The notes: generated from the sequence alone by a model not told the origin. DNA of 64,000 bases from Nannocystis bainbridge (GCF_028368995.1 NZ_JAQNDL010000001.1:672001-736000); one strand, 5' to 3'; positions 5,586-62,490 are shown, counted from the stretch's first letter. Numbers and translations are program-made.

Positions 5586-5628
5586 TGCCGACGACCACGC
5601 TTCCCACCCCCACCGCGCAGGAGTCACG

Positions 5629-8600
5629 ATGAGCAGCATTCAGGCCCCCGTGTGGGCGTTCCATGCCGAGGCGATCGACGGCGTCGGCGACACGCACCTC
5701 CCGATCGGGATCCACGTCCGTGCCCTGCCGTCGGCGCGCCTCGGCCTGCCTGCCGCGCCGCTGGTCGTGTACCGCGCGGTCCTCGACCTCGACAAGTTCA
5801 AGCACCTCGTGCACGACGGCGGGGTCACCTGGATCGACAGCCACGGCGAGCCGCGCACGATCCCGTTCGAGGTCACCCCGGACAACCCGGTGTACGGCTA
5901 CTTCCCGGCGCCCGACGTGTTCTGGGCCGAGCTGCAGGCCGAGCCGGGTGACAAGCTCGACCCGCCCAAGCCGCCGCCGTTCAAGGACATCGGCGAGCTG
6001 ATCAAGGGCGAGTTCAAGGACGAGAAGGAACTCGAACATTTCGTCGCCACGATCGACCCGATCCTCGGCGACCAGCAGCAGCCCGCGGGCGTGCTGCGCT
6101 TCGAGGCGCTGACCAGCACCGGCGTCGGCTCGGCGCCGATCCTCTCGCGCTCGAGCGAGCGCTACGCCCTCGCCGCGTGGACGATCCAGCGCGTGCGCGT
6201 GGTCGGCAAGGGCAGCGTCAAGGGCATCCGCTGGCTCGACGACGCCGCGCTCAAGAAGGCCCAGATGGGCGATCAGCTGTGGCAGGTGTGGAGCCTGCCG
6301 GTCAAGCAGAAGGCCCGCTACATCCCGACCGCCAACGCCGAGTCGGAGGCCAAGGATCGGGTTCATCGCGCCGGCGCGACCCGCCTGCCCATGTACGTCG
6401 CCCACACCGCGACCGCCCCGGTGACCGCCCCGTCGGCGATCCCCGACGACGCCATGGTGCGCGTCGATCAGGTCCGCAGCGAGATCGATCGCTGGCTCGA
6501 CCTCGTGCTCGACGACACCAGCGTCGAGACCTGGCAGGTCACCGACAAGCAGGACGTCGACGGCAAGGACGGCGACATCCGCGTGCCCGTCGAACCATTC
6601 ATCCTCGCCGGCGCCGTCGACCCCGACGTCGGCCATTTCCTCGGCTTCGGCGACGTCGACACCAAGCCCCCGGCCGGCGCCGGCTCGCTGGTGTTCTACC
6701 GCGTGCGCGGGCTGTGGCGCTGGCGCGCCAAGCAGTGGAACTCGGCCCAGCAGCAGTCGTTCGCCGCGGCCGTGCGCGCCGACAGCAAGGCCGTCCAGGC
6801 CAGCTTCCCCGAGCTCACGGAGTGGGGCATCGGGCCCAAGGAGAAGGGGCCGTTCGTCGACCTCCACGCCACCGCGGTCGCGTTCGTCGGCACCCCGCCC
6901 GAGCTGCCGCCGGCGATGACCTTCGACAGCGCCGAGGACCGCGGCTGGCTCGCCGAGCCGCCGCCGCCCCACGTGCGCCGGGCCCTGCGCCTGCTCGCCA
7001 GCAAATTCCGCCCGCACGCCGTCGCTGCGCTCGCGGCCACCGACGTCCGCGGCGACCGCACCCTGCACGCGTTCCCCAAGTACGGGCGGCTCATCGTCGG
7101 CGAGCCGCTGCCGCCGGGCCTGCCGCTACCGCTGGTGGTGTCGCGCCCGATCGATCAAGGCGGCCCCGGCGAGGGCCGCTTCGAGGAGCGCGACGCCCCC
7201 GCGGGCGCCGTGTTCTACCGCCTCGCCGAGGGCGACTGGTTCGGCCGGTGGTCGCCGTGGCGCACGCTGCTGGCCCCGGCGAAGGCCCGCACGCCGCCGA
7301 TGCGCCCGGTCATCGAGATCTACCCTGAGCCGCCGACCGTCGCCGAGCCGGTGCAGACCGGCCCGCTGCACGGCACCATCACCCTGCGCATCCCGATCCC
7401 CCGCGTCTCCGAGCTGCCGCCCGGCGGCGCCCACCTGGCCAGCCTCGAGCTCGACGAGACCTTCGAGGGCAGCCCCACCACCACCGTCAGCTACATCCTC
7501 GCCAGCCCCGCGCCGGCCGTGATCGACACGGATCCGCCCACGCCTGACATGCTGCGCATCGTCCGTGACGGCCCCGACCTGCCGCGCTGCGGCTCGCGCA
7601 AGGTCACCTACACCGCCCGCTGGTTCGACGTGCTCGGCCTCGTCTCGCCCGACGCCCTGCCGGCCCAGCGCACGATCACCGACCCGCGCCCGCCGCCCCC
7701 GCCGCCCGTGATCACCGAGCTGCGCTGGACCGCCCGGCCCGACGCCGAGGGCCACGCGCGCGTCGACCTCGACTTCACCACCACCGTCGGCACCCGCTAC
7801 CGCGTGTTCGCCAGCAACGAGACCCTGCTGCTCAAGGCGCTGCAGCAGGGCGGCCACGTCACCGCCCGCAACGAGATCCTCGCCGCCGAGCCCGGCGCCC
7901 CGCGGGCCGAGAAGTTCAAGCAGTACAAGGCGCTGTTCGGCTGGGACCACTTCGAGGGCCTGACCAAGCAGCCGATCGTCGCCACCGGCACCACCACCCG
8001 CTTCGTCCACCGCGTGTCGGGCTCGCTCGAGGTGCTGGTGATCTACCGCGTGCTCGGCGAGGGCCCCTCGGGCGCGCTGTCCGAGATGTCGCAGGCCGAC
8101 CTGGTCCCGTTCGCGGTGCCGAACCTCGGCCCGCCGACGCGGCCGCAGGTCGCCGTCCTCAACGCCGGCCTCGATCCGACCACCGACGGCGTCAAGCTGC
8201 GCGTCAAGGTCCCGCGCAGCAAGGCCGCGCCGAAGGCCTGGCGCCTGCGGCGGACCAGCACGCCGACCCGCGAGTCACTCGCCATGCGGATCGTCGACAC
8301 CGGCCCGGTGAGCGGCGCCGAGGTCGACGGCGAGGGCACGAGCTTCGACATCCTCGCCGCCGCCCCGCTGAAGCCGTGGCGCATCTACAAGTTCGCGGTC
8401 GAGGTCCAGGCCGACGACCCACCCGGCGCGCCGACCGTCGGCGTGATCCTGCCCGGCGAGTGGAGCGAGGCCAGCGCCGCGGCCACGGTCTCGGCGATCC
8501 CGCCGGACCCACCCGCGGCCGCGTCCGGCATCGTGGTTCAGAACATCCCCGGCGCGCTGCAGATCACCCTCACCCACCCGCACGCCGACGCGCTGGGCGG

Positions 8601-8808
8601 CACCCCGCTCGGGCCGCACCGCTTCGAGCTGTGGCGGGTCCAGCCCGACGCGCGCCCCGAGCGACGCGAGGTCGCGTTCATCCGCGGCGCCGGCGACACG
8701 TGGATCGGCACCGACCCCGGCGAAGCGCCCGCCGGCACCTACGTCACCGTCTCCATCCTCGACCCCGTCGGCCGCCGCAGCGACGCCGCGCTCTCCAACC
8801 AGATCTGA
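5629..8808 (+). CDS. Large uncharacterised protein with probable Fn3/Ig-like beta-sandwich modules (1059 aa)
   Basis: GGAG RBS; 43 nt after previous stop; motifs VFYRVRGLW, YRLAEGDWFGRWSPW, YKFAVEVQA..GEWSEAS; no signal peptide. Confidence 0.85.
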   Translation: MSSIQAPVWAFHAEAIDGVGDTHLPIGIHVRALPSARLGLPAAPLVVYRAVLDLDKFKHLVHDGGVTWIDSHGEPRTIPFEVTPDNPVYGYFPAPDVFWAELQAEPGDKLDPPKPPPFKDIGELIKGEFKDEKELEHFVATIDPILGDQQQPAGVLRFEALTSTGVGSAPILSRSSERYALAAWTIQRVRVVGKGSVKGIRWLDDAALKKAQMGDQLWQVWSLPVKQKARYIPTANAESEAKDRVHRAGATRLPMYVAHTATAPVTAPSAIPDDAMVRVDQVRSEIDRWLDLVLDDTSVETWQVTDKQDVDGKDGDIRVPVEPFILAGAVDPDVGHFLGFGDVDTKPPAGAGSLVFYRVRGLWRWRAKQWNSAQQQSFAAAVRADSKAVQASFPELTEWGIGPKEKGPFVDLHATAVAFVGTPPELPPAMTFDSAEDRGWLAEPPPPHVRRALRLLASKFRPHAVAALAATDVRGDRTLHAFPKYGRLIVGEPLPPGLPLPLVVSRPIDQGGPGEGRFEERDAPAGAVFYRLAEGDWFGRWSPWRTLLAPAKARTPPMRPVIEIYPEPPTVAEPVQTGPLHGTITLRIPIPRVSELPPGGAHLASLELDETFEGSPTTTVSYILASPAPAVIDTDPPTPDMLRIVRDGPDLPRCGSRKVTYTARWFDVLGLVSPDALPAQRTITDPRPPPPPPVITELRWTARPDAEGHARVDLDFTTTVGTRYRVFASNETLLLKALQQGGHVTARNEILAAEPGAPRAEKFKQYKALFGWDHFEGLTKQPIVATGTTTRFVHRVSGSLEVLVIYRVLGEGPSGALSEMSQADLVPFAVPNLGPPTRPQVAVLNAGLDPTTDGVKLRVKVPRSKAAPKAWRLRRTSTPTRESLAMRIVDTGPVSGAEVDGEGTSFDILAAAPLKPWRIYKFAVEVQADDPPGAPTVGVILPGEWSEASAAATVSAIPPDPPAAASGIVVQNIPGALQITLTHPHADALGGTPLGPHRFELWRVQPDARPERREVAFIRGAGDTWIGTDPGEAPAGTYVTVSILDPVGRRSDAALSNQI

Positions 8809-8815
8809 GGTCCCG

Positions 8816-11800
8816 ATGGCCATCACGCTGAATCCTCCGATCGACAACCTCGGCATCATGGCCCCCGTCCTCGGGCCATGGTTCTCCGCGGCCGACGTCA
8901 ACCTCGGCGTCCCCGACCCCGCGCAGCGGCTCGGGCTGACCGTCGATTTCGCCGCCGACACCGACTGGTTCGCGCCGGCGACCGGCACGCTCAGCCTGTT
9001 CGTCACCGGCGGCGCCACCCCGGCGACCCTCGACGCGCTGCAGGACAGCAGCGGCGCGTTCCCCTTCCCGGCCGGCCGGATCGTCGCCTACTTCCGCCTG
9101 CTGCCCGAGGTCGAGGCCCGGCTGCACGCGCTGGTCGGCCTCGTGCCCGCCGCGACCGCCAACCCCGTCACCGATCCACCGACCGCCGCCGCCGCGCCGA
9201 CCCGCCCGCAGGTCCGCAGCCTGGCGATCGTGCTGCCCGCCGCGACCCCGCTGACGCCCGCCGGCCTCTACCCGTTCTTCGGCGGCGAAGGCGACATCCC
9301 CGGCGGCGACCCGGCCGAGAAGATGGCCGCGATCGGCCTCGCCCTCAATGGCGGCAACCTCGTCAACGCGGCCCTGCCGATGACGTGGTTGCGCCGGCCC
9401 GGCGGCGCCGCGGGCGACCGCGACGTCCTGCTGCAGGACCTCAACGGCGAGGTCCAATTGTGGGCCTTCGATCGCCGCGGCCGCGCCATCGATCCCGGCG
9501 CCGTCGCTTGCTGGTGGTCGTGGTTGCTGGCGACCGCCGTCGGCGACGACCCGGCCACCGGCGACGCCGACATCCAGCTGCTCGCGCCCGACATCGAGGC
9601 CAATGATTATCCGCAGCAGGGCGGCGGACCGGTGGTCGTGCAGTTCGCCGCCCAGCGGACCGCCCACCTCGTCGACGCCCACGAGGGTCCGCTCGCCGCC
9701 CCGTTCCTCGGCGGTCGCCTGCAGGTCGACGGCGCGGTCGCCAACGACGCGCTCGTGCTGGTCGCCGACAACGACGACATCGCCTTGACCTTCGCCGCCC
9801 TGCCCGCGCCGGGCACCCCGCCGACGGCCGACAACCCGCAGGTCGACGACGCCCCGCGGGCCCGCATGGCGGTGCTGCCGACCGGCAACTACGGGACCAC
9901 CGCGACGCTGTGGCCCGGCGGACCGGTGCACGCCGGCCTCACGCGAGACTTCGTGCGCGTGGCCGTGGTCGACGAGGAGCGCCACCTGGTCGGCCTGGCC
10001 CGCCGCGACAGCCGCGAGGACGCCACCACCACCGAGGAGCGCCTGCGGTCGGCCCAGAACCGCCCGAGCACGCGCATCGAGGTCCACCGCACCAGCACCC
10101 CCGACGGCGTGCTGCTGACGCACTCGCAGGCCGCCGCCGACGCCCTGCTCGCGGTGCCCAACACCGACGACCCGTCGCGCCTGGTGCTCGGCCTCGGCGA
10201 TTTCGCGTGGGGCGGGGCCCCGAGCGCCGCGGCCCCGACCCCCGGCGCGGGCCCGCTGCCGACGACCCTCGCCGACAGCGGCGCCGCGGTCCCGACGGCC
10301 GGCCAGTACCGCGTGCGCGCGCTGACCGGCGGCGGCGCGCTGGCCCAGGATCAGCAGACCGTGCTCGTCGAGGTCAACCTCGGCACCGCCTGCGCCGGCG
10401 CGTGGGTGCGGGCCTGGCCGCTCGGCTTCAACCTCGAGGTCGGCCTGCATTTCCGCACCACCGGCGGGGCCGGGCGCGTCAATGCGGCCGGCGTGGCCCA
10501 GTTCACGATGGTGCTGCTCAACGGCACGCTCGGCGCCAGCGGCCTGCTCGGCATGGACACCCTGGTCCTGCTGCCCGACAGCACCGGCGCCGTCGCGGCC
10601 CAGCGCCGCTACGCCGACCGTCGCTTCGCCCGCCCCGCGCCGGTCGGCGGCATCGCGGCGACCACGATCGCCGGCGACTGGGTGGTGTGCGAGACCGGGG
10701 CCACCGGCTCCGGCGCCCTGCCGAACGGCGCGGTGCCCCCGGGCGGCCACGTGGTGCTGCTGACGGCCACGCCGACGATCGTCGATCGCACCGCGATCCC
10801 GGCCGCCGCGTGGGACGCCGACACCTTGCGCAACCGCCTGCAGGCGACCGACATCGTGTCGCTGACGTCGCCCGCGTTCGGCTCGACCCCCGATCGCGCC
10901 GACGTGCTCGGGCGCCCGCTGCCACGCACCCCGACGGCCGGCGGCAACCCGCGCGGCGGCCTCGACACGATCGTCGGCAACCGCCTGCACTACTTCGATC
11001 GCCTGGCCGTCGGCCTGACCTCCGCGTCGTCGACCCCGTACTCGCTGCTCGACCGCCTCGAGGTCGCAGCGGCCACTGTCGGCGACGACGCGGCGACCGC
11101 CGTCATCGGCACCGCGCCGCCGGTTCCGTGGGCGCTCGAGTCGGCCCGCGAGTTCTTCCTCGGTCACCCCGGCGTGCCGGCGGCGATCGAGCTCCACGGC
11201 ACCGGCGTGCGCCTCACCGGCGCGCCGGCGGTCGCGGTCGCCGAGTACGTGCGCGAGCGGACCGCGGGGCTGTCGTTCGCCGAGGTCCAGGCGCTGGTCG
11301 AGCCCGACCGTTCGGCGACGATCCAGAGCGAGCTCGCGGTGGCGGCCGAGGCCGTCACGGCGCTGCCGACGATCGCCGACGGCGCCGATCCGGGCCCGGT
11401 GGTCGCGGTGCTGCGCACCACGGCGCTCGGCATGGAGGGCCGCCCGGGCGTCGGCTACGATGCGGTCGACGACGAGCAGTTCCCCTTCAGCGAGCATGAG
11501 GACGAGCTCGCAGACTGGCTCGACGACAACATCCCGGTCGAGGGCGCCGCCGGCACCGCCCTGCGCGACGCCGTCACCGGCCCCACCGCCTCGATCACCC
11601 GCGCCCTCGACCGCCGGATCCAGACCGCGGCCTCCGGCGCCCGCGAGACCCTCCAGGCCCTGCTCGCGGCGATCGATCGCGCCCAGGACTTCGTCTACGT
11701 CGAGACCCCCGCCGTCGACGCCATGCCCATCGATCACGGCGGCGACAACGTCGAATGGTGGACGCGGCTGGTCGCCCGCATGGGCGCGCGCCCCGGCCTG

Positions 11801-12397
11801 CGCGTGATCCTGTGCGTGCCGAGCCTGCTCGGGCCCGGCACGCCGAAGCGGCTGCAGGAGGTCCGCGACCACTGCCTGCTCACCGCCGTCGACGCCATGC
11901 GGGCCACCCGCGGCGATCGCTTCGCGCTGTTCTCCCCGGGCGCCGGCGCCGACCGGGCCGTGCGGTTCACCAGCACCTCGGTGGTGATCGACGACGCGTT
12001 CGCGCTGACCGGCACGACCCACCTGTGGCGCCGCGGCCTGTCGTGGGACTCGTCGCTGGCGGCCGCGGTGTTCGACGAGCGGGTGATCGACGGCCGCCCG
12101 CAGGATGTCCGCGCGTTCCGGATCCAGCTGCTGGCCGACCGCCTGGGGATCCCGACATCACGCGTGCCCGACGACCCGGCCGAGCTGGTGCGGGCGATCC
12201 GCGAGCTCGACGCCCGCGGCAGCAACCGCCTGTCGGCGATCCCGATCGCGCGCCCGAGCGACACGCCGCAGAACGCCGACATCGACGCGTGGAACGCCGA
12301 CGGCAGCAAGGACGACCTGGACCTCGCCAGCGTCGCGGCCCTGCTGATGGCGTTCATCGCCCTCACCGACGTCGACCACGCGATCGTCGAGGGCTGA
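8816..12397 (+). CDS. Large protein with C-terminal phospholipase D-like domain, HKD motifs degenerate (1193 aa)
   Basis: ELHGTGVRLTGAPAV, ARETLQALLAAIDRAQDFVYVETP and FTSTSVVIDDAFALTGTTHLWRRGLSWDS align with PLD WHD....GPA, AI..A..FIYIE and HSKxxxxDD...GSAN..RS...D; 7 nt after previous stop. Confidence 0.85.
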   Translation: MAITLNPPIDNLGIMAPVLGPWFSAADVNLGVPDPAQRLGLTVDFAADTDWFAPATGTLSLFVTGGATPATLDALQDSSGAFPFPAGRIVAYFRLLPEVEARLHALVGLVPAATANPVTDPPTAAAAPTRPQVRSLAIVLPAATPLTPAGLYPFFGGEGDIPGGDPAEKMAAIGLALNGGNLVNAALPMTWLRRPGGAAGDRDVLLQDLNGEVQLWAFDRRGRAIDPGAVACWWSWLLATAVGDDPATGDADIQLLAPDIEANDYPQQGGGPVVVQFAAQRTAHLVDAHEGPLAAPFLGGRLQVDGAVANDALVLVADNDDIALTFAALPAPGTPPTADNPQVDDAPRARMAVLPTGNYGTTATLWPGGPVHAGLTRDFVRVAVVDEERHLVGLARRDSREDATTTEERLRSAQNRPSTRIEVHRTSTPDGVLLTHSQAAADALLAVPNTDDPSRLVLGLGDFAWGGAPSAAAPTPGAGPLPTTLADSGAAVPTAGQYRVRALTGGGALAQDQQTVLVEVNLGTACAGAWVRAWPLGFNLEVGLHFRTTGGAGRVNAAGVAQFTMVLLNGTLGASGLLGMDTLVLLPDSTGAVAAQRRYADRRFARPAPVGGIAATTIAGDWVVCETGATGSGALPNGAVPPGGHVVLLTATPTIVDRTAIPAAAWDADTLRNRLQATDIVSLTSPAFGSTPDRADVLGRPLPRTPTAGGNPRGGLDTIVGNRLHYFDRLAVGLTSASSTPYSLLDRLEVAAATVGDDAATAVIGTAPPVPWALESAREFFLGHPGVPAAIELHGTGVRLTGAPAVAVAEYVRERTAGLSFAEVQALVEPDRSATIQSELAVAAEAVTALPTIADGADPGPVVAVLRTTALGMEGRPGVGYDAVDDEQFPFSEHEDELADWLDDNIPVEGAAGTALRDAVTGPTASITRALDRRIQTAASGARETLQALLAAIDRAQDFVYVETPAVDAMPIDHGGDNVEWWTRLVARMGARPGLRVILCVPSLLGPGTPKRLQEVRDHCLLTAVDAMRATRGDRFALFSPGAGADRAVRFTSTSVVIDDAFALTGTTHLWRRGLSWDSSLAAAVFDERVIDGRPQDVRAFRIQLLADRLGIPTSRVPDDPAELVRAIRELDARGSNRLSAIPIARPSDTPQNADIDAWNADGSKDDLDLASVAALLMAFIALTDVDHAIVEG

Positions 12398-53866: not shown

Positions 53867-54784
53867 TCAATCCGCCGCGGGCCCGGCGAACTCCACCATC
53901 CCCACGCTGCCGACCCGCAGCCCCGCGCTCGCCCCCTCGTGCAGCCGCGCCTCCGCGAACAGCAGCCGCGTCCCCGCATCGATCTCGGGCGCGATCGCCA
54001 TCACTTCGCCCTCCACCGTCCGCCCCTCCTCGACGAACGCCACCTTCACCGCCGCGCCCAATCGCAGCCCCGCGCTGCGCGCCTCGGGCACCGCGAATCG
54101 CACCCGCCGCGCGTCCGAGATCAGCTGCACCACCGCCCGGCCCGGCTCGACCGTCGCGCCTGCGTCCACGTGGCGTCGCGCGACCTCCCCGGCGAACGGC
54201 GCCCGCAGCTGCGCCTCGACGATCCTCGCCGACGCGTCCTCCACCGTGCTGCGCTGCCGCTGCAGCGACGCGCTGGCGCTGCGCTTGCGGGCCGCCGCCA
54301 GCTTCTCGGCGTAGCGGTGCTCGCGGACCTCCGCCCCCGAGACCACCCCCTCCAGCTGCTCGGTGTCCGCGCGCAGCTCCCTCGCCCGCTGCAGCTCGAG
54401 CTCCAGTCGCTCGAGCTCGGCCTTGCTCGCAGCCCACGCCGCCGTCGCCCCTGCCAGCTCGTGGCGCTCCTCGCGGACATCGAGCGCCGCGATCACCTCG
54501 CCCGCGTTCACGTGGTCGCCGACCTGCACCTCGATGCGATCGATCCGCGAGAATTCCGGCGCCGTCAGCACCACCTCCGCCTCGGGCACCAGCACCCCGA
54601 TCATCGGCTCCGAAGCAATGACGGCAGCCGCGACCGCCGCCTCGTCCGCGCGCACCGCAGCGGGCTGTGGTGATTCGCCGGGGCCGTCCTCGTGGGAATC
54701 ACAAGCCACCGCGAAGCACCACAATCCCCACGCCGCGATCGCTGCGTGACGACGTCCTGCTGCCCTCATTACCGCGCGCCTCAT
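53867..54784 (-). CDS. Efflux periplasmic adaptor subunit (HlyD/RND MFP), possible lipoprotein
   Basis: VQVGDHVNAGEVIAALD, coiled coil, LRAPFAGEV..RHVDAGATV; FAVAC. Confidence 0.88.
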   Translation of the reverse strand: MRRAVMRAAGRRHAAIAAWGLWCFAVACDSHEDGPGESPQPAAVRADEAAVAAAVIASEPMIGVLVPEAEVVLTAPEFSRIDRIEVQVGDHVNAGEVIAALDVREERHELAGATAAWAASKAELERLELELQRARELRADTEQLEGVVSGAEVREHRYAEKLAAARKRSASASLQRQRSTVEDASARIVEAQLRAPFAGEVARRHVDAGATVEPGRAVVQLISDARRVRFAVPEARSAGLRLGAAVKVAFVEEGRTVEGEVMAIAPEIDAGTRLLFAEARLHEGASAGLRVGSVGMVEFAGPAAD

Positions 54785-56988
54785 GACTCCTCCCTCTCAT
54801 AAAGCCGGCGGTACGCGCCGCCGTGGCTCATCAACTGGCGGTGCGTCCCCGACTCGACGATCCGTCCGCCGTCCATCACAAGGATCAGGTCCGCGTCGAC
54901 CACCGTCGACAGCCGATGCGCGATCACCACGCGGGTGCAGCGCAGCGACGCCAGCGAGCGCTGAATCGCCGCCTCGGTCACCGTATCGAGGTTGCTGGTC
55001 GCCTCGTCGAGCAGCAGCATCGCCGGCGCGCCGACCAGCGCGCGCGCCAGCACCAGTCGCTGGCGCTGGCCGCCCGACAGCGACGCCCCGCGGTCGGCCA
55101 GGATCGTGTCGTAGCCCATCGGCAGGGCCGCGATCTCGTCGTGGATCGCCGCCCGCCTGGCCGCGTCGATCACCTCGTCGAGGCTGATCTCGGGCCGCCC
55201 GAGCGCGATGTTCTCGCGCACCGACACCCCGAACAGGTCGCCGCGCTGCGTCACCACCCCGAGCTGCTCGCGGACGCTGCGCAGATCGAGCCCGGCGATG
55301 TCGAGGCCGTCGTAGAGCACCCGCCCGCCCTGCGGCGCATAAAGGCCGACCAGCAGCTTGGCCAGGGTCGACTTGCCTGCTCCCGACGCGCCGACCACCG
55401 CCACGAACTGGCCCGGCTCGACCCGCACCGACACCTCGCGGACCGCCGGCGGCACCGACTCCGAGTAGCGGAACGTCACCGCCTCGGCCTGGATCCGCCC
55501 CGACAGCCGCGGCGCCCGCTGGACCCGCGACGCGTCCTGCTCGGGCTCGGTCTGCATCACGTCTTCGATGCGCTCGAGGTAGCTGCCCAGCACCTGGAAC
55601 TTGACCGCGACGCCGACCAGCGTGGTCATCGGCCGCAAGAACCCCGAGCCCAGCGCCGACAGCCCGAGCATCGCCCCGAGCCCGAGCTCTCCGTCCAGCA
55701 CCAGCTTGGTGCCCACGCCCAGGATCACCAGCGGCGCCGCCATCGCGAACGCGTCGAGCAGCGAGCCGATGGTCGCGTCGAGGCGACCGCGCCGCAGCGA
55801 CACGTTGAGCGAGTCGACGAACAGGTTGGACCAGCGATCGACCGCCCGGTACTCGGCGCCCATGCTCTTGAGCGTCTCGATGCCGGTGAGCATCTCGACC
55901 TCGTAGCTCGAGGTCCGCGCCTGCACCGCCAGGCCCTCGGTCATCAGGTCGCGCTGGACCCGGCGCGTCGCAGCGTACAGCGCCAGCTGCAGCGACGCGA
56001 GCACCAGCACCACCGCGCCCATCAGCGGGCTGACCCAGAAGATCAGCACCAGGTACACGCTGACCAGCGTGCCGTCGAGCAGGGCCGACATGGCCCCCGA
56101 CGTGAGGATCTCGCGGACGGTGGCGTTGCTGCCGAGCCGCATCAACAGGTCGCCGGCCGACCGCTTGTGAAAGAACGAGTACGGCAGGTCGATCAGGTGA
56201 TCGAGGAAGCCGATCGTCATGTCAGCGTCGAGCAGCGTGCGCAGCTGCACCAGCAGGTTGGCGCGCACCAGCGAGCTGACGAAGGTGAAGAGCACCATCA
56301 TCGCCAGCCCGGCGACCAGCACCCCGAGCAGGTCTGTGTCGTGGCGCGGGAGGATGCGGTCGACCAGCAGCGTGGTCATCAGCGGCAGCGCCAGCGCCAG
56401 CAGCTGCACCAGCACCGACATCAGCAGCGCGCGGCTCCACAGCGCGGGGTAGGCCAGGATCCGGCCGAAGTAACGGCGCACCAGCGGCTGCTGGCGACCG
56501 CCGGCCGCGAACGCCTCGCCGGGCTCGAGCAGCAGCGCCACCCCGGTGAACGCCTGCTCGAACTCGGCCCGCGACACCCGACGCCGCCCGTGCGCCGGAT
56601 CGAGGATCACCGGACCGCGGCGATCGACCCGTTCGAACACCACGAAGTGGTTGAACTCCCAGTGGAGGATCGCGCCGGCCTGCAGCATCTCGAGCTCGTC
56701 GAGGTCGTCGATGCGCACGCCGCGGCCGCGCAGCCCGTAGCCGCGAGCGGCCCGCAGGATGCCGAGCGCGCTGACGCCGTTGTGGTCGACCCCCATCGCG
56801 TCGCGCAGCTCGTCGAGCGGGTGGGCCCGGCCGTGATAACGCAGCACCATGCTCAGGCAGGCCGCGCCGCAGTCGGTCGCGGTCATCTGCTGCACGTGCT
56901 CGAGCCGACGCGGCTGCCCGATCGCCCCCAGACGCTGCAGGGCAGGGAAGCGCCGCGACAGCGCACGATCTCGTTCGGTAGTTGGCAT
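54781..56988 (-). CDS. C39 peptidase-containing ABC transporter (PCAT)
   Basis: QQMTATDCGAAC, LHWEFNHFVV, ILDPA; Walker A GASGAGKS; LSGGQRQ; LLLDEAT. Confidence 0.95.
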   Translation of the reverse strand: MPTTERDRALSRRFPALQRLGAIGQPRRLEHVQQMTATDCGAACLSMVLRYHGRAHPLDELRDAMGVDHNGVSALGILRAARGYGLRGRGVRIDDLDELEMLQAGAILHWEFNHFVVFERVDRRGPVILDPAHGRRRVSRAEFEQAFTGVALLLEPGEAFAAGGRQQPLVRRYFGRILAYPALWSRALLMSVLVQLLALALPLMTTLLVDRILPRHDTDLLGVLVAGLAMMVLFTFVSSLVRANLLVQLRTLLDADMTIGFLDHLIDLPYSFFHKRSAGDLLMRLGSNATVREILTSGAMSALLDGTLVSVYLVLIFWVSPLMGAVVLVLASLQLALYAATRRVQRDLMTEGLAVQARTSSYEVEMLTGIETLKSMGAEYRAVDRWSNLFVDSLNVSLRRGRLDATIGSLLDAFAMAAPLVILGVGTKLVLDGELGLGAMLGLSALGSGFLRPMTTLVGVAVKFQVLGSYLERIEDVMQTEPEQDASRVQRAPRLSGRIQAEAVTFRYSESVPPAVREVSVRVEPGQFVAVVGASGAGKSTLAKLLVGLYAPQGGRVLYDGLDIAGLDLRSVREQLGVVTQRGDLFGVSVRENIALGRPEISLDEVIDAARRAAIHDEIAALPMGYDTILADRGASLSGGQRQRLVLARALVGAPAMLLLDEATSNLDTVTEAAIQRSLASLRCTRVVIAHRLSTVVDADLILVMDGGRIVESGTHRQLMSHGGAYRRLYEREES

Positions 56989-56994
56989 GACGAC

Positions 56995-57960
56995 CTACAG
57001 GCGTTTGAGCGCCGGGATGAGGGCCTCGAGCACGGTCTCGGAGCGCAGGCGGGCCTCGAGCACGCCCTGCATGCCGTCGTAGACCCGGTACTCGGTGTCG
57101 TCGGCGACGAAGGTGTCCGCCGGCAGCTCGGTCTCCACCACCACCACCGGGCCCGCCAGCGCGATCGCACCTTCACGATCGCGCCCGAGGTAGCGCATCG
57201 CCTCGGCGGGGCCGACCACCTCGTCGGCCACCACGCGCAGCGCCACCTCGTGCCGGCTGTCCGGGAACCCCTCGAGCTCGAGGAACAACCGGCTGTCCCC
57301 CGCGCGCAGCAGCGGCCGGTAGTGCCCGGGGAACAGCCCGAACACGACCGTGCGCGCCGTGTCCTGCTCGACCGCCACCACCGCGTCGCCCGGCGCCACC
57401 GGCTGCCCCGGCCGCACGCGCACGTCCGACACCCTGCCCGGCTGCGGCGCGACGATCTGCCGCTCGCGCACCCGCGCCTGCGCCAATTGCAGCTGCGCCT
57501 TCAGGATCGCCAGCCGCTCGCGCCTGGCGTCGTCGGCCGGCGCGCGCAGCAGCTCGACGAGTCGCTGGCGGTACTCCTGCTCCACGCGCGCCAGCTCGGC
57601 CCGCGGCGCGGCGTCGTCGAGCTGGACCAGCACCTGCCCGGTAGCGACGCGCTGACCAGTGCTCACCGCGATGTGCTGCACGGTGCCGGGCACGTCCGAG
57701 GTGACCGCCACGCGGCCCTCGCGGCGCACCACCGCGACGCCCTGCGCGTACTCGCCGATGCTCGCGCTGGTGGCGAACGCGACGCTCGCGACCAGCAGCG
57801 CCAGCGTCACGCCGACGGCCCAGCGCGTCCACGTCGCCACGATGTGCAGCGGGCGGCCCGGTCCCGCGCCGCGGCGGTGCGCCTGCACGGCCGCCTCGCG
57901 GAAGATGGCCCGCCGCGCCCCCGGCGAAGCGCTGCTCGGCTCGTCGAACGACTCGGTCAT
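56995..57960 (-). CDS. HlyD-family secretion adaptor
   Basis: IFREAA, N-terminal TM, GTVQHIAVSTGQRVATGQ, IVAPQPGRV. Confidence 0.88.
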   Translation of the reverse strand: MTESFDEPSSASPGARRAIFREAAVQAHRRGAGPGRPLHIVATWTRWAVGVTLALLVASVAFATSASIGEYAQGVAVVRREGRVAVTSDVPGTVQHIAVSTGQRVATGQVLVQLDDAAPRAELARVEQEYRQRLVELLRAPADDARRERLAILKAQLQLAQARVRERQIVAPQPGRVSDVRVRPGQPVAPGDAVVAVEQDTARTVVFGLFPGHYRPLLRAGDSRLFLELEGFPDSRHEVALRVVADEVVGPAEAMRYLGRDREGAIALAGPVVVVETELPADTFVADDTEYRVYDGMQGVLEARLRSETVLEALIPALKRL

Positions 57961-59153
57961 CGCACCCCCCGTTCCCCGATCACGTCGTGACGCGCCGGCT
58001 CCTCGCGGCGCACCACGACCAGCCCGTCGAGGACCTCGTGCCAGGCTGCGCGCTGAAATTCATGGTTGATGGGGCGAGCCTCGACGGAGCCCAGCGCCCG
58101 CAGCTCCGCCGCGTCGAGGTAGCGCAGCGCCTGCTCGGGCCCCAGCGCCCGGCCCTCGAGCGACGCGGGCGGCGCGACCGAGAGCTCCCGACCCGCGCGC
58201 CCGCGCGGCTGGGTGGCCCCCGACCAGGCGGAGAAGCCGATCGCCGCGGCCCGCTCGCCGTACTGCGCGTGCACGTACTGCCCGAGCGGCGAGAACCCGC
58301 GATAGGCCGCGATCGCCTCGAGATCCTTGGCCGCGTGCACGGTCGCGCACCACACGATCGTCTTGCCCGCGTCGCCCTGCCGCCGCCGATGCCACACGAA
58401 GTTGGCGAACATCGACCGGTCGCGTTCATTAAAACCATCGCGCCGATCGACGACAAAATCTCGCGCGACCCACCGCGCCAGGTTGCTCGCCATGACCAGG
58501 TCCTCGGCCGCTTTCGGCGACGGCGCCGCGCCGGCGATCGCCGCCTGGATGTCCGCGAGACATTTCACGAGCGCCGCCTGCGTCTCCGGCGAATGCGGGT
58601 GGTCCTCGTCGTAGGTCCACAGGTGATGCCGCGCGATCTGGGCCTCGCACGCGTCCTTGCGCCCCGGCGGCAGCCAGGCCGCCAGCACCGCCGGCAGCTC
58701 TCGCTGCGCATAATAAGCCGTGGAGTGGAGCTGGTCGTCGAGCCCGCGCAGCTTCAACCGGCCCGCCGCCGCCGCCGCGTGCATGAACCCGATCCACGGC
58801 TGCGTCTCGCGGGCCTCCGACCACACCGCGCCGATGGCGTTCGCCACGTCGCGCGCCGTCGCAGTGCCCGCGGCGTACTTGTGCTCGAGCGCGAGCATCT
58901 CGTAGATGTCGCTCTCGATGAACAGCGCCTCGAACCCGCACGAATCGACCAGCGCGCGCACCAGCGCGGTCTTGATCGCCCAGGTGCGACCGTCCCCGTG
59001 CTCGCTCTCGCCGAGCAGCACGACCTGCTTGTCGCAGACATCGGCGACCAGGCGCTCGAGCTCGCGCTGCTCCGCGCTCGCGCTCGCCGGCGCCGAGGCG
59101 GGCCCCGGCGCGCACGCGGCGAGGGCCAGAAACACGATCGTGGGCCGCTTCAT
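57957..59153 (-). CDS. Erythromycin esterase (EreA/B) family lipoprotein
   Basis: MKRPTIVFLALAAC lipobox; VVLLGESEHG, GFEALFIES, GLDDQ, RDRSMFAN, KTIVWCATVH. Confidence 0.85.
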   Translation of the reverse strand: MKRPTIVFLALAACAPGPASAPASASAEQRELERLVADVCDKQVVLLGESEHGDGRTWAIKTALVRALVDSCGFEALFIESDIYEMLALEHKYAAGTATARDVANAIGAVWSEARETQPWIGFMHAAAAAGRLKLRGLDDQLHSTAYYAQRELPAVLAAWLPPGRKDACEAQIARHHLWTYDEDHPHSPETQAALVKCLADIQAAIAGAAPSPKAAEDLVMASNLARWVARDFVVDRRDGFNERDRSMFANFVWHRRRQGDAGKTIVWCATVHAAKDLEAIAAYRGFSPLGQYVHAQYGERAAAIGFSAWSGATQPRGRAGRELSVAPPASLEGRALGPEQALRYLDAAELRALGSVEARPINHEFQRAAWHEVLDGLVVVRREEPARHDVIGERGVR

Positions 59154-59170
59154 GGTCGTCGCCTCGACCT

Positions 59171-60316
59171 TCAGCCCCGCACGATCGGCAGGTGCACGCG
59201 CGCCTGGTAGTGCGCCAGCGCGGCCGCGGCGCCCGCCCGAGTCTGCCAGTCGGCCCACGTATCGGTGTACGGATCGTAACCGCACTTGAGCGGCTTGCTG
59301 TCCTCGACCGCCGGGTCGGCCAGCAGCGCCCGGCAGCCGGTGCACGCATAACGGTACGGACAATCGCGGCAGACCTCGATCTCGTCGTTGCGGGCGGCCC
59401 AGACCCGGCGAAACGCCTCGTCCGCGACCACCTGCGCCAGCGAGACCGCCCGGTGGTCGCCGAACGACCCGCGCATGGCCGGGCAGTTGCGGACCTCGCC
59501 GCGCTCGTCGATCGCCAGCTTGCGATTCAGGCAGCCGCTGAATTGCCGCAGCTCGTTGAAGGTCGGCGTGGTCGGCGGCAGCAGCTGCCGCTTGCCGATC
59601 TGCCCGCAGTCCAGCGCCGACTCGAGCGGCTTGACGGTCATCGAGATCTCGAGCGTCAACAGCGTCGCGGCGTCCCCACGCGCCCCGTAGTCGACCGCGA
59701 GCCGCCGCTCCTGCGGCGCCGAATGGACCGTGAGCCCGGTGATGAGGCGATGGGCGCCGACCACCGCCACGTAGTCGTCGTCGCTGCGCCCGGGCTCGTG
59801 GGCGAGGATCGCCTCCAGCGTCTGGATCGACGAGCCCCGGCACAGGCGCGCCAGCTCGTCGAGCTCGGCCAGGCCGAACACCCCGGCGTAGCCCCGCACC
59901 TGGAGGTGCTGGCAGCCGAGGCCGCTCAGCTCGGCGACGATCTTGCGATAGTCGTGGTGCTGCCCGCGGACGTCGACGATGGCGTTGTGGATCGCGCAAG
60001 GCGCGTCCCAGGCCCTGGAGATCTCCGGAAACGCCGCCGCGTCGGCGACGACCGCCACGTATTCGTTCGCCAGCAAGAAATCCAGGAACGCCACGAAATC
60101 GTCGTGCTCCTCGGGCGACAGCGCGTCCACGATCTCGCCCAGGCGGCGGGCCCGGAACAGCGCGAAGAACGGGAAATAGGCCGACGGGAACGTCGAGATG
60201 TGCTTGCGGGTGAGGTCGTAGATCGCCGACGCGGCGGCCCCCTCGACCGGCACGCAGTCGGAGAAGAGGAACACGTACTCGTCGCGTCGGTCGCGTAACA
60301 ATTGAGTGGAGTCCAT
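59171..60316 (-). CDS. Grasp-with-SPASM system SPASM-domain peptide maturase
   Basis: FSDCVPVEG..SAIYDL.R, NAIVD, CLNRKLAID..G.VRNCP.M, IEVCRDC.YRYAC.GCR, KPLKCGYDPY; no CxxxCxxC radical-SAM motif. Confidence 0.88.
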   Translation of the reverse strand: MDSTQLLRDRRDEYVFLFSDCVPVEGAAASAIYDLTRKHISTFPSAYFPFFALFRARRLGEIVDALSPEEHDDFVAFLDFLLANEYVAVVADAAAFPEISRAWDAPCAIHNAIVDVRGQHHDYRKIVAELSGLGCQHLQVRGYAGVFGLAELDELARLCRGSSIQTLEAILAHEPGRSDDDYVAVVGAHRLITGLTVHSAPQERRLAVDYGARGDAATLLTLEISMTVKPLESALDCGQIGKRQLLPPTTPTFNELRQFSGCLNRKLAIDERGEVRNCPAMRGSFGDHRAVSLAQVVADEAFRRVWAARNDEIEVCRDCPYRYACTGCRALLADPAVEDSKPLKCGYDPYTDTWADWQTRAGAAAALAHYQARVHLPIVRG

Positions 60317-60319
60317 CGT

Positions 60320-60520
60320 TCAAAGCTCCGGTTTGGAGATCGGTTTGCCCGCGTGACGGGCGTACATCACCGAATGGCGGTACTTCGGCAGCTCGAGCGT
60401 CGCCCGCTGCGTCGCCTCGGCGTCGACGATCGCGGCGCTGATGACGATCCGCGCGTAGCCCAGCGGCAGGCTCGCCTTGAGAAGGGGGGTCAGGGTCATC
60501 TCTTCAAACTCTTTGCTCAC
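60320..60520 (-). CDS. Small accessory protein of grasp-with-SPASM cluster (66 aa)
   Basis: Overlaps ATP-grasp stop, ends 3 nt before SPASM start; good codon bias. Confidence 0.7.
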   Translation of the reverse strand: MSKEFEEMTLTPLLKASLPLGYARIVISAAIVDAEATQRATLELPKYRHSVMYARHAGKPISKPEL

Positions 60521-61499
60521 GCGCCACCAGCCTCTCTGCGATCATTCGCTCGATCGCCATGTTGCAGCGCTCCGACAGCGGGCCGAACTGCCCGACCGGG
60601 TTGACCTCGAGCAGGTAGTATTCGCCGTGCGCGTCGACGATCATGTCGAACGAGCCGGTGTTCAGATCGAGCGAGCGCGCCAGCAGGGACAGCTTGGCCT
60701 CGATCTCCGGCGGCAGGCGAAACGGGACCACCCGGTTCGGTCTTTCGCTGTTGTACTTGCGATAGTCGACGCGGGTCTGCGCGTCGCTCTGCGAGAAGAT
60801 GGCCGCCGCGCGAAACTGGTCGTCGAGGAAGAACACCCGCAGCTCGAAGGCCTTGTCGACGTACCGCTGGAACAGCGACGGCGCCATGCGCTCGCCCACG
60901 CCCTCGAGCACCCGCGGCTCGAGCGCCTCGGTGTACGTGAAGTACCCGGTCCTGCTCTCGGTCGTGTCGAACAGATAGAGGCCGTCGGACATCGCCTTGG
61001 TCACGTAGCCGCAGCCCGAAGCCACCAGGCTCTGCGCGTGGCTGCGCAGGTTCGACACGCTGTACGGCGGCGTGCGCAGGCCGACCTCGCGCGCGCGCCC
61101 CAGCACCACCAGCTTGTTGGGGGCCGAGCCGTTGGCGCTGCCCAGCACGGCGCTGCGCCGCCGCAGCAGGTCGTGAAAGTGGTCGCGCAGGGTGCGGTTC
61201 TCCAGGTCGAGCTTGTGTTGCAGGTGCCGCGCCAGCGCCGGGTGCTCGGGCGCCGCCACGCTCGGGAACAGGCCCTTGAACCAGAAGCCGCCCTTGCGCA
61301 GCCAGACGCTCGTCACGTCCTCGAGGCCGAACGCGTCCTCGTCGACCCGGACGGAGAAATCATCGTCCGAGATCGTCAGCTCGACGCTGTACTCCTCGTC
61401 CGCGTTGATCCGCACGACCTTCGCGTCGCTCAGGTGGTCGATCCATCGCATCACGTCGAGGGTCGAAGGATCCCCGGAATTGCTGAAGATCAAGATCAT
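60504..61499 (-). CDS. ATP-grasp peptide maturase (graspetide synthetase, grasp-with-SPASM type)
   Basis: ATG 61499 with GGAG RBS; SVWLRK, NKL..L..A..VGL.TP, TKAMSD, PSLFQRYVDKAFELRVF, VDYR, LNTGSFDMI, LEVNPVGQFG. Confidence 0.92.
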   Translation of the reverse strand: MILIFSNSGDPSTLDVMRWIDHLSDAKVVRINADEEYSVELTISDDDFSVRVDEDAFGLEDVTSVWLRKGGFWFKGLFPSVAAPEHPALARHLQHKLDLENRTLRDHFHDLLRRRSAVLGSANGSAPNKLVVLGRAREVGLRTPPYSVSNLRSHAQSLVASGCGYVTKAMSDGLYLFDTTESRTGYFTYTEALEPRVLEGVGERMAPSLFQRYVDKAFELRVFFLDDQFRAAAIFSQSDAQTRVDYRKYNSERPNRVVPFRLPPEIEAKLSLLARSLDLNTGSFDMIVDAHGEYYLLEVNPVGQFGPLSERCNMAIERMIAERLVAREQRV

Positions 61500-61591
61500 G
61501 GCAGGCTCCATCGCTCGTATCGCCCGCATCGGGCCGGAGAGGCGCGGCCTCCACCGGCACATGCCGGTAGAGGCCACGACCCTCGCGCGGG

Positions 61592-61753
61592 TCAGTCGTT
61601 GTCGTTGACGCCGTCGATGTGGCACTTCGACTTCGTGCCCGAGCTCTCCGGGGGCATCCCGCCGGTCACCTGGCACAGCTCGTCCGCGCCGAGCGTGTTG
61701 GCCGTGAACTTGGGCAGCTGCTTCTCTTCGTTCTTTCTAAGGTTCTTTTTCAT
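61592..61753 (-). CDS. RiPP precursor 3 (double-glycine leader; core MPPESSGTKSKCHIDGVNDND)
   Basis: MKKNLRKNEEKQLPKFTANTLGADELCQVTGG|core; paralogous to two upstream ORFs. Confidence 0.88.
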   Translation of the reverse strand: MKKNLRKNEEKQLPKFTANTLGADELCQVTGGMPPESSGTKSKCHIDGVNDND

Positions 61754-61860
61754 GACACGATTCCATCTCTCCCCGTTCGCACGGGGTTCTCTCCGCGCTC
61801 GCCCCGTACCATCGGGGGCGAGCCTCATGGTCCATTCTTGCGTGTTCGCTTCGCCGCGGC

Positions 61861-62043
61861 TCAGGCCACGCCGCCGCCGCCGTCGCCGTCGTCGATGCCG
61901 TCGATGTGGCAGATCGACCACGTGCTGCCGGACTCCGGCTCCCTCCCGCCGGTCACCCGGCACAGCTCGTCCGCGCCGAGCGTGCGGCCGCTGAACTTGG
62001 GGAGCTTGTTCTCGTGGTCTCGCTTCTTCATGGGCTTATTCAT
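61861..62043 (-). CDS. RiPP precursor 2 (core REPESGSTWSICHIDGIDDGDGGGGVA)
   Basis: Leader ...LPKFSGRTLGADELCRVTGG; GGAAGGAATGGA upstream. Confidence 0.88.
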   Translation of the reverse strand: MNKPMKKRDHENKLPKFSGRTLGADELCRVTGGREPESGSTWSICHIDGIDDGDGGGGVA

Positions 62044-62113
62044 GGTCTAGTTCCATTCCTTCCCGCAGGTGCGGGAAAATCATCGTTCAAGACGGTACCG
62101 CTGCCAGTCACTG

Positions 62114-62281
62114 TCAGTTGCAGCCGTCACAAGTACCGTCGACGTGGCAGACGCTGTGCGTGTTGGCGGTCTCCGGCGGCATCCCGCCCTTGACCTGGCA
62201 CAGCTCGTCCGCGCCGAGGGTCTGGCCGTGGAACCTCGGCAGCTTCTTCTCGTCGTCGCGCTTCTTCATGGGCTTGTTCAT
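62114..62281 (-). CDS. RiPP precursor 1 (core MPPETANTHSVCHVDGTCDGCN)
   Basis: Leader ...LPRFHGQTLGADELCQVKGG; upstream sequence nearly identical to that of precursor 2. Confidence 0.88.
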   Translation of the reverse strand: MNKPMKKRDDEKKLPRFHGQTLGADELCQVKGGMPPETANTHSVCHVDGTCDGCN

Positions 62282-62319
62282 GTCTAGTTCCATTCCTTCC
62301 CGTTTCGCACGGGACAATC

Positions 62320-62490
62320 ATTCAAGGGTATTCCCCGCACCGCGTGATACGGGGGTAGGTGTAAGTCATCGCCGCTAATCGAACTCAAGTCGACGATGCA
62401 CCTCGGACACGCGTCCCCTCGCCGCTGGTTTCGAAAAAATTTTAAATCATCAAAGCACCACGACCGGGCCTGATTTTCCCCGAATAGCGC
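62320..62490 (-). promoter_or_regulatory. AT-rich probable promoter region of RiPP cluster
   Basis: TTTCGAAAAAATTTTAAATCATC island in a high-GC background, upstream of first precursor; exact elements not assigned. Confidence 0.4.

Follow-up and report, generated by a model that had tools for sequence, protein, structure and literature searches.

A grasp-with-SPASM peptide operon in the myxobacterium Nannocystis bainbridge and the core motif of its precursor family

Gene clusters of the grasp-with-SPASM type are, according to the available text of a recent preprint (10.64898/2026.08.04.741601), found in soil bacteria, in the human gut and on mobile elements of Porphyromonas gingivalis, where the elements are conjugative; the gene names gwsG and gwsS come from the same source. 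In the accessible portion of Makarova et al. (2022, PMC8939145), the family appears as ATP-grasp (adenosine triphosphate-grasp) 'branch 5', is described as highly specific for Bacteroidetes, and includes the SPASM enzyme as well as a small 'LPL family' protein. All members of graspetide group 14 co-occur with a SPASM protein, as stated in the sections of Carter et al. (2026, PMC13097080) that are available. Here we describe a cluster of this kind in the myxobacterium Nannocystis bainbridge, within a 64,000-nucleotide stretch of its genome (GCF_028368995.1, NZ_JAQNDL010000001.1:672001-736000), which is referred to at its full length as the window. Ten genes on the minus strand, at window positions 53867-62281, encode three precursor peptides, a peptide ligase (GwsG), an LPL-like protein, a SPASM protein (GwsS), an esterase-like lipoprotein and an export system. 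This is probably a working gwsG/gwsS operon that makes exported lactone peptides by the mechanism proposed below.

In the literature searched, no report of the product or enzyme mechanism of any grasp-with-SPASM cluster was found, and a search joining 'graspetide' and 'Nannocystis' returned nothing. A full-text search with the core pentapeptide returned unrelated papers only, and the core motifs are absent from the main text of Makarova et al. (PMC8939145) insofar as that text is accessible.

The operon, its family and its host

An original prediction, made from the DNA alone, had placed the cluster in the grasp-with-SPASM family and proposed a hidden Markov model search as the check. GwsG scores 263.1 bits against TIGR04192 (cut-off 230; 262.7 bits in the whole-genome search) and GwsS scores 261.5 bits against TIGR04193 (cut-off 175). 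These are NCBI's two equivalog models for the grasp-with-spasm system; since both cut-offs are passed, the assignment stands, and the locus is a member of the catalogued family and not a mere look-alike. Public Nannocystis proteins that are 74-76% identical to GwsS are already named grasp-with-spasm in NCBI records. The group to which the window ligase belongs is probably the RODEO graspetide 'group 14' of Carter et al. (2026).

The gene inventory of that prediction (three precursors, ligase, 66-residue protein, SPASM protein, esterase, adaptors and C39 exporter in a single minus-strand run of ten) and its coordinates also hold, the open reading frames (ORFs) having been called and their starts refined. 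From the upstream end, the features are as follows (aa, amino acids; bp, base pairs).

62114-62281, minus strand: precursor A, 55 aa, made up of a 22-aa core behind a 33-aa leader that ends in GG; a repeated ribosome-binding stretch precedes its ATG
61861-62043, minus strand: precursor B, 60 aa, its core followed by a Gly-rich tail
61592-61753, minus strand: precursor C, 53 aa
61544-61577, minus strand: hairpin with a 16-bp stem, between the precursor C gene and the ligase gene
60504-61511, minus strand: ATP-grasp peptide ligase GwsG, 335 aa (TIGR04192)
60320-60520, minus strand: LPL-family protein, predicted bridge between ligase and SPASM protein, 66 aa, with LP[LIM]G[YF] and KPISK motifs
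59171-60316, minus strand: GwsS, with an RRE domain, a barrel like that of radical S-adenosylmethionine (SAM) enzymes and a SPASM domain, 381 aa (TIGR04193)
57957-59153, minus strand: erythromycin-esterase-family lipoprotein, 398 aa (PF05139), with a signal peptide ending L-A-A-C
56995-57960, minus strand: HlyD-type membrane-fusion adaptor, 321 aa (PF13533, PF16576, PF13437)
54781-56988, minus strand: C39 peptidase-containing ATP-binding cassette (ABC) exporter (PCAT), 735 aa (PF03412, PF00664, PF00005)
53867-54784, minus strand: second adaptor, of the RND-adaptor (membrane-fusion) type and probably a lipoprotein, 305 aa (TIGR01730), with a signal-like N-terminus ending A-V-A-C

The operon genes match curated families at E-values from 1e-18 to 1e-187, and by these and the profile scores the cluster and its precursor family lie far beyond chance. 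The cluster is real and well conserved, and its genes look intact. The tight coupling attributed to the enzyme and transport genes is evident at every junction: the gene for the 66-aa protein overlaps the ligase gene by 17 nucleotides (nt), the esterase/adaptor and exporter/second-adaptor junctions overlap by 4 nt, and the remaining gaps are 3 to 17 nt. The ligase and SPASM genes are 188 nt apart, with the 66-aa gene alone between them.

The hairpin that follows the last precursor gene lies in a 96-nt region with a predicted fold of -57.2 kcal/mol (z -5.2; none of 200 shuffles as stable), and a hairpin of differing sequence occupies the same spot in all eight related loci that were folded. This is as expected for an element setting the ratio of precursor to enzyme transcripts. 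Additionally, a short CCCG...CGGG hairpin and a purine-rich GGAAGGAATGGAA-like ribosome-binding stretch stand before each precursor gene (62046-62110, 62282-62330 and 61754-61800, minus strand), and the upstream element thus appears to have been duplicated along with the gene. A scan for sigma-70 promoters gave no sites; four terminator-like sites were found against 2.5 expected, none of them at an operon end that matters. Four soil metagenome runs, all from one study, contain 24-59% of the sampled sequence words, and one RNA run contains 5%. A rhizosphere RNA library yielded one 295-nt contig, of which a 251-nt piece lies over 62030-62280 (precursor A) with two mismatches; a second piece of 34 nt from the RNA run was judged spurious. 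The single short contig is a weak hint that precursor A is transcribed.

The cluster had been read as myxobacterial, and its host is indeed Nannocystis. The closest loci are those of N. exedens DSM 71, N. punicea FL3, N. pusilla, Nannocystis sp. RBIL2, N. radixulma and an uncultured Nannocystaceae genome, in which the ligase is 70-80% identical to that of the window. In five of these six loci, the complete set of seven non-precursor genes occurs in unchanged order; the sixth, that of N. radixulma, has all but the esterase gene. The ligase passes its cut-off in seven of 61 related genomes (N. bainbridge counted), of which six are Nannocystis and one is from a second genus, and among 401 evenly drawn Myxococcota genomes, again counting the host itself, the SPASM model is matched at E<=1e-10 in N. 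bainbridge alone. Third-position G+C content is 0.89-0.96 in the cluster genes and 0.85-0.97 in their neighbours; because it matches the rest of the window, the cluster appears to be long resident. Recent horizontal transfer was rejected on this ground and because no mobile-element gene was seen in the flanks scanned.

The flanks of the window cluster share no synteny with those of other Nannocystis loci. An AraC-type regulator gene lies upstream of the precursors in other Nannocystis (L018:5192-6016, minus strand, with equivalents in loci L019, L020, L022 and L023), and both this gene and a further upstream precursor of the other species are missing beside the window cluster; the best homologue of the regulator in the N. 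bainbridge genome is on contig 4, at 53% identity. The unshared flanks and the displaced regulator, taken with third-position G+C like that of the neighbours, thus argue for rearrangement and not for recent transfer. A fourth precursor (E 6e-24 to the precursor profile) is encoded on contig 5 of the same genome at 437153-437317, minus strand (L105:6154-6318), as an isolated gene: no further cluster gene lies within 6 kb. This precursor has Cys at core position 10 and is of the type that opens the N. exedens and Nannocystis sp. RBIL2 clusters and is missing from the window.

Several further features were seen. Two adjacent ATP-grasp genes on contig 3 of N. bainbridge (1965959-1970505; L002 and L003) score 82 and 57 bits against TIGR04192, far below its cut-off, and may belong to another graspetide-type locus. 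In the N. pusilla locus (L020:9159-11522), alignment of the SPASM and esterase genes is incomplete (residues 1-261 and 150-390), which suggests frameshifts or assembly errors there. At the other end of the window, three consecutive very large ORFs at 324-12397, plus strand (1753, 1059 and 1193 aa; third-position G+C 0.96-0.97), match no Pfam family at E<=1e-5.

Precursors and the core motif

The three window leaders end in LGADELCxVxGG, as had been noticed from the sequence, and all three cores keep T8, S10, C12, H13, D15, G16 and D19 (as well as P3 and E4). The conservation claimed for these residues is therefore correct for the window, but T8, S10 and H13 vary in orthologues. Among 17 distinct Nannocystaceae precursors, selected by their leaders, T/S5, C12, D15, G16 and D19 are found in all 17; T8 is replaced by Cys in two, S10 by Cys in three, and H13 by Ala or Ser in three, and position 4 is Glu in 15, Asp in one and Gly in one. 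A search of the N. bainbridge genome with precursor profile A4 recovers precursors A, B and C at E-values of 5e-28, 5e-27 and 2e-25, respectively. The precursors differ from each other mainly in their tails. N. punicea has an orthologous paralogue of precursor B with the same tail, and six relatives of precursor C were recovered from the database at E<=1e-3, some of them annotated as hypothetical proteins in N. punicea, N. pusilla and Nannocystis sp. ILAH1.

The core had also been put forward as a myxobacterial novelty, and this does not survive a wider search. Using the SPASM alignment, 80 metagenome loci were retrieved, and precursors with the pattern T-x-S-x-C-H-x-D-G-x-x-D/E are encoded upstream of metagenome ligases that are 40-47% identical to the window ligase. 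In these precursors, the core follows Bacteroidota-type MKKF leaders and others, on contigs of 30-63% G+C. When 1.84 billion representative proteins were searched with a profile built from 36 such peptides, 128 matched at E<=1e-3 (40 at E<=1e-10); 120 of the 128 contain C..DG, and at least four leader types are represented. The core is a signature across the whole family, not a myxobacterial one. Its consensus is T5-x-x-T8-x-S10-x-C12-H13-x-D15-G16-x-x-D/E19-x-D21. Among the 120 matches with C..DG, T/S is found at position 5 in 105, T8 in 114, S10 in 109, H13 in 97, D/E19 in 116 and D/E21 in 86; position 18 is Asp in 48, and C12 is the single Cys in 44. Because selection fixed C12, D15 and G16 in the 120, the invariance of these three carries weight only among the leader-selected precursors and through the count of 120 of 128.

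With respect to curated models, the view that the core lies outside the known groups is borne out, as none of TIGR04194, TIGR04149, TIGR04497 and PF14406 reaches its cut-off. The sole match of the three window precursors to these four models is to TIGR04497, at 14.1 bits against a cut-off of 32. For nine related precursors, the best scores are 24.0 bits to TIGR04149 (cut-off 25), over the leader only, and 14.4 bits to PF14406 (cut-off 25).

In a ligase tree of 42 rows, one clade (support 100/99) contains every locus with such a precursor, which is present in 25 of the 28 loci of the clade that could be assessed; the other three have a different peptide. In the sister clade, made up of low-GC loci, such a precursor is found in none of ten assessable loci. 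The core and the ligase clade thus go together. Within a mid-GC subclade of the same ligase clade, two 38-aa paralogues are encoded upstream (L037:3672-3788 and L037:4459-4575, plus strand). These ORFs have neither the C-H-x-D-G core nor a GG leader, and may be a different type of precursor.

Three hydroxyl positions (5, 8 and 10) and three acidic positions (15, 19 and 21) are conserved in the core. The original prediction had proposed two rings, for example S10-D15 and T8-D19; the third conserved donor/acceptor pair, T/S5 (105 of 120) and D/E21 (86 of 120), had been missed. No conserved Lys is present in the core, where Lys is seen only at the variable positions 9 and 11. With three hydroxyls, three acids and no conserved Lys, ester bonds fit better than amide bonds, and the motif would allow three nested rings, S10-D15, T8-D19 and T5-D21. 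Where the hydroxyl at position 5 is absent, the acid at position 21 is mostly absent too (10 of 15 cores, against 24 of the 105 with the hydroxyl; odds ratio 6.75, p 0.001, in a statistic that ignores kinship). This joint loss is a hint of pairing, and it makes three rings as plausible as two.

The ligase, GwsS, the LPL protein and the export genes

Among solved structures, the closest relatives of the ligase by sequence are AMdnB (7.7e-23), the ATP-grasp ligase 5ig8 (1.4e-21) and CdnC (6.3e-16), and residues K172, K220, R225, E302 and N304 are invariant in 32 sequences. By this homology, the ligase belongs to the microviridin-ligase superfamily.

The SPASM protein was compared across an alignment of 30 family members, down to 35% identity. 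Ten Cys residues are invariant (C21, C135, C237, C262, C278, C316, C319, C325, C328 and C345), and the last seven of these are spaced like the canonical seven-cysteine SPASM motif. GwsS matches PF13186 (SPASM) at 25.3 bits (cut-off 21.5), as do 15 of the 30 members. The CxxxCxxC motif is absent from all 30, none of which matches PF04055 (Radical_SAM) at E<=1; a nearly invariant His121-Asp122 stands where the loop for the SAM cluster should follow the first barrel strand. The description of GwsS as a SPASM protein therefore holds for its SPASM domain and its TIGR04193 membership, but since no radical-SAM cluster motif is present in the 30 members, it cannot be taken for granted that the protein performs the chemistry usual for SPASM enzymes.

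Among solved structures, searches by sequence for relatives of GwsS reached a best E of only 0.36-0.6. The AlphaFold model (mean predicted local distance difference test (pLDDT) score 86.9, predicted template-modelling (pTM) score 0.79) was aligned with 48,161 solved chains using VIA-align. Residues from about 104 to 350 resemble radical-SAM/SPASM enzymes (Z 10.9 for PqqE, BtrN and SuiB; Z 10.0 for anSME), and the match to CteB has Z 10.3 over 287 residues, spanning 20-354. Residues 8-91 resemble the RRE domains by which RiPP leaders are recognised: Z is 9.1 for PbtF (root-mean-square deviation 2.5, 80 residues), 8.4 for a lasso B1 protein, 8.0 for TbiB1 and 7.4 each for PqqD and LynD. The ESM Atlas model of GwsS has template-modelling scores of 0.49-0.57 to Radical_SAM domains and of 0.53 to a 'pseudo-rSAM' cluster. 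On its predicted fold, GwsS is an iron-sulfur protein with the architecture of CteB and SuiB from which the site of the SAM-cleaving cluster has been lost. Cys21 was considered as a remnant of the lost CxxxCxxC and rejected, because residues 8-91 form the RRE domain and the barrel starts near residue 104.

The 66-aa protein has no Pfam or NCBIfam match. Its LP[LIM]G[YF] motif and C-terminal KPISK motif are common to a small ORF at the same position in related loci, and by these motifs and this position it is assigned to the LPL family, within what the accessible text of Makarova et al. (PMC8939145) gives of that family. In an alignment of 31 LPL sequences, S62 never varies, and P19, K59, P60 and K63 are almost invariant. 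A role as a stand-alone RRE of the PqqD kind, as proposed for LPL proteins, is not favoured: there is no family match, the stand-alone model is poor, and GwsS has an RRE of its own. The Atlas model of the protein by itself has a pTM of 0.30 and a pLDDT of 0.51, as expected of a protein that would fold on its partners.

A joint model of the ligase, GwsS and the LPL protein, the last being the scored partner, was made with self-built alignments and without iron-sulfur clusters. The complex scored 0.89, 0.88 and 0.89; controls with the partner replaced scored 0.00 and 0.00, and a control with GwsS replaced scored 0.40. Of 80 solved complexes, 58 reach the score mark, as do 2 of 110 mismatched pairs. 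At least 92% of contacts are common to the runs, and the partner pLDDT is at least 78. The model places LPL residues 44-50 against ligase residues 12-22 and 34-36, and ligase 171-213 is also in the interface; by alignment with 5ig9, this last segment is presumably the central-domain region where microviridin leaders bind. LPL I61 and S62 lie on GwsS barrel residues 111, 113, 137 and 139. There is no predicted contact on GwsS residues 1-92, and the RRE would therefore stay free. The model supports, but does not show, binding of the LPL protein between the ligase and GwsS.

The exporter matches PF03412 at 124.1 bits, PF00664 at 99.2 and PF00005 at 108.6, which fits the expectation that a C39 exporter cleaves after GG. 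It scores 622.8 bits against TIGR03796, the NHLP exporter equivalog, below the cut-off of 853.3. The exporter is 82-91% identical and the HlyD-type adaptor 77-85% identical in all six Nannocystaceae loci; the second adaptor (TIGR01730, 116.8 bits against 94.9) is also present in all six. The esterase-like lipoprotein matches PF05139 at 68.1 bits (gathering threshold 26.4), aligns with 2rad/2qgm, and has seven residues (E49, H52, E80, R244, D245, H273 and K276) that are invariant in nine orthologues. Against the EreB resistance model, it scores 16.2 bits (cut-off 750). One metagenome locus (L030:7137-13137) has the precursor-ligase-LPL-SPASM module followed by ROK, SIS and sugar-ABC genes, without an exporter or an esterase, and the export genes are thus not a fixed part of the module.

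Proposed mechanism, alternatives and relation to known systems

From the families, folds, conservation and synteny described above, we infer a scheme in which all chemical steps are proposals. The RRE of GwsS would recruit the precursor, and GwsS would serve for leader recognition and as a scaffold, without radical chemistry. The LPL protein would clamp GwsS to the ligase, with its KPISK tail in the dead barrel and its middle on the N-terminal and central domains of the ligase. The ligase, with ATP, would activate the carboxylates of D15, D/E19 and D21 and join them to the hydroxyls of S10, T8 and T/S5, so that two or three nested lactones would enclose the Cys12-His13 pair. The C39 exporter would then cut after GG and secrete the peptides with the two adaptors. 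The esterase-like lipoprotein, outside the cytoplasmic membrane, may open the lactones of peptide that re-enters or is mis-made, as self-protection, or may trim the product. A stronger version of this scheme is tentative and, we think, probably goes too far: a three-protein machine in which a maturase without a SAM cluster recruits the substrate, an LPL protein that folds on binding, with Ser62 in the dead site, acts as clamp, and the product is a tricyclic lactone hairpin with a free or modified Cys-His pair. In this version, the Cys-His pair would be a pharmacophore shared by no fewer than 120 sequence clusters and at least four leader types, on contigs of 30 to 72% G+C. No description of such a three-protein machine was found in the literature searched.

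Several points weigh against the lactone scheme. The rings, their number and their partners are read from conservation in sequence, and the association of T5 with D21 comes largely from one subfamily. Position 8 or 10 is Cys in five of the 17 Nannocystaceae precursors, which fits a nucleophile but is odd for an ester. In the complex model, part of the interface (GwsS 236-240, 261-262, 326, 328 and 344) lies at the cluster-binding cysteines; as the clusters are absent from the model, that part may be an artefact, and because the alignments were our own, the calibration holds only roughly. N. radixulma and related metagenome loci do without the esterase gene, which is thus not essential. Evidence of expression consists of one short RNA-library contig, and the simple ratio of nonsynonymous to synonymous substitution rates in the short genes is high (0.43-0.87) and uninformative. 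Finally, given the invariant Cys of the core and the conserved cluster cysteines of GwsS, GwsS could still be an enzyme acting on that Cys.

This last possibility is the main rival, although we hold it to be considerably less likely than not to be right. GwsS would use its two auxiliary clusters, and perhaps His121/Asp122, to modify Cys12 by a thioether, another sulfur cross-link or oxidation, and the product would be a lactone peptide with a second type of bridge. It may be that the conservation of C12 (17 of 17 leader-selected precursors, with C..DG in 120 of 128 profile matches) reflects such a step. All ten Cys of GwsS, with H121, D122, H198 and S199, are invariant or nearly so in 30 sequences down to 35% identity, and its closest folds are peptide-modifying enzymes, including the thioether synthase CteB (Z 10.3 over 287 residues). 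The 44 of 120 cores with a single Cys are also in keeping with it, because in these a disulfide cannot be the general role of C12. A 5'-deoxyadenosyl radical could not be made in the known way, however, as there is no CxxxCxxC and no Radical_SAM match in any of the 30 members. The sister ligase clade keeps GwsS, yet the Cys motif is found in the precursors of none of its ten loci, and the LPL tail is predicted to fill the barrel. An altogether different use of the same residues, which we consider improbable, is that D-G-x-x-D-x-D and the Cys-His pair form a metal or calcium site in the mature peptide, with only some or none of the proposed acids esterified. A Cys-His pair beside Asp/Gly loops is a common set of metal ligands, and the acids are frequent enough (D15-G16 in 120 of 128; D/E19 in 116, Asp18 in 48 and Asp/Glu21 in 86 of 120), but the motif is not the textbook D-x-D-x-D-G loop. 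An ATP-grasp ligase moreover needs a carboxylate and a hydroxyl or amine partner, exactly three of each are conserved, and the joint loss of T5 and D21 fits pairing better than metal binding.

With lactone rings again as the preferred reading, two narrower questions concern the bonds themselves and the fate of the rings. Some graspetide ligases form side-chain amides with Lys, as do microviridin MvdC and MdnB, and the window ligase might in principle make lactams; with no conserved Lys in the core, and Lys confined to variable positions 9 and 11, this is very improbable indeed. A more open matter is whether the esterase-like lipoprotein is a maturation enzyme, trimming the N- or C-terminal tails or opening one ring to give the active form, and not a self-protection factor. 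For an erythromycin-esterase homologue of a different branch, the accessible text of Makarova et al. (2022, PMC8939145) does not decide between the two roles. The position of the gene inside the operon, between GwsS and the exporter, in five of six Nannocystaceae loci, the conserved catalytic-type residues and the fact that the precursors differ mainly in their tails would suit maturation. The gene is nevertheless absent from N. radixulma, as well as from several related metagenome loci with the same core, and a lipoprotein outside the cytoplasm would meet the peptide only after export, so that we regard a maturation role as doubtful.

Grasp-with-SPASM clusters are common, and the cluster in the window is itself an ordinary member of its family; its value lies in making the open chemistry of that family approachable. 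The results of use are the core signature found across the family, the RRE domain of GwsS and the bridging role predicted for the LPL protein. Three points can be put to the test: the three rings that the conserved 17-residue core may form, the complex predicted for the ligase, the LPL protein and GwsS, and a possible ring-opening esterase. Because cultured strains (N. exedens DSM 71 and N. punicea FL3) carry the same operon, the peptide could be sought directly.

Compared with microviridin-type ligases (AMdnB 7m4s, 5ig8, 5ig9 and CdnC 7mgv), the window ligase has full-length homology and a precursor with conserved Thr/Ser and Asp/Glu. It differs in scoring far below the cut-offs of the MvdC (125 bits against 425) and MvdD (105 against 475) models, in its strict linkage to the SPASM and LPL proteins, and in the invariant Cys of its core. 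The rosaritide ligase acts in complex with a strictly co-occurring partner, MirC, in the available text of Carter et al. (2026, PMC13097080), and the window ligase resembles it, so far as that text goes, in having strictly co-occurring partner proteins. The partners here are unrelated, however (a 66-aa LPL protein and a dead radical-SAM protein), and the complex is only predicted. With the RRE-radical SAM-SPASM maturases (CteB 5wgg, SuiB 5v1q, PqqE 6c8v and TigE 8vpo), GwsS shares an N-terminal RRE, a partial TIM barrel and a SPASM domain with cluster cysteines (Z 10.2-10.9), but unlike them it has neither CxxxCxxC nor a Radical_SAM Pfam match. The lipoprotein has the Pfam match and the two conserved His-containing motifs of the erythromycin esterase family (PF05139; 2rad/2qgm of B. 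cereus), but it is a lipoprotein in a peptide operon and not an EreB resistance enzyme.

The closest comparison remains that with grasp-with-SPASM systems. In common with them, both window enzymes score above the family cut-offs, the LPL-family gene lies immediately before the SPASM gene, precursors with GG leaders are encoded upstream, and a C39 exporter and an HlyD-type adaptor are present. A 'cluster 23' secreted lipoprotein occurs in almost all branch 5 loci, according to the accessible part of PMC8939145; the sole lipoproteins of the window operon are the esterase-like protein and the second adaptor. In contrast to branch 5, the host is a myxobacterium and the leader is of the LPKF type, and the operon adds the erythromycin-esterase-like lipoprotein and the second adaptor and has no outer-membrane gene. 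What is new here is thus the myxobacterial phylum, the added esterase and the second adaptor, in a system that is known but chemically unexplored.

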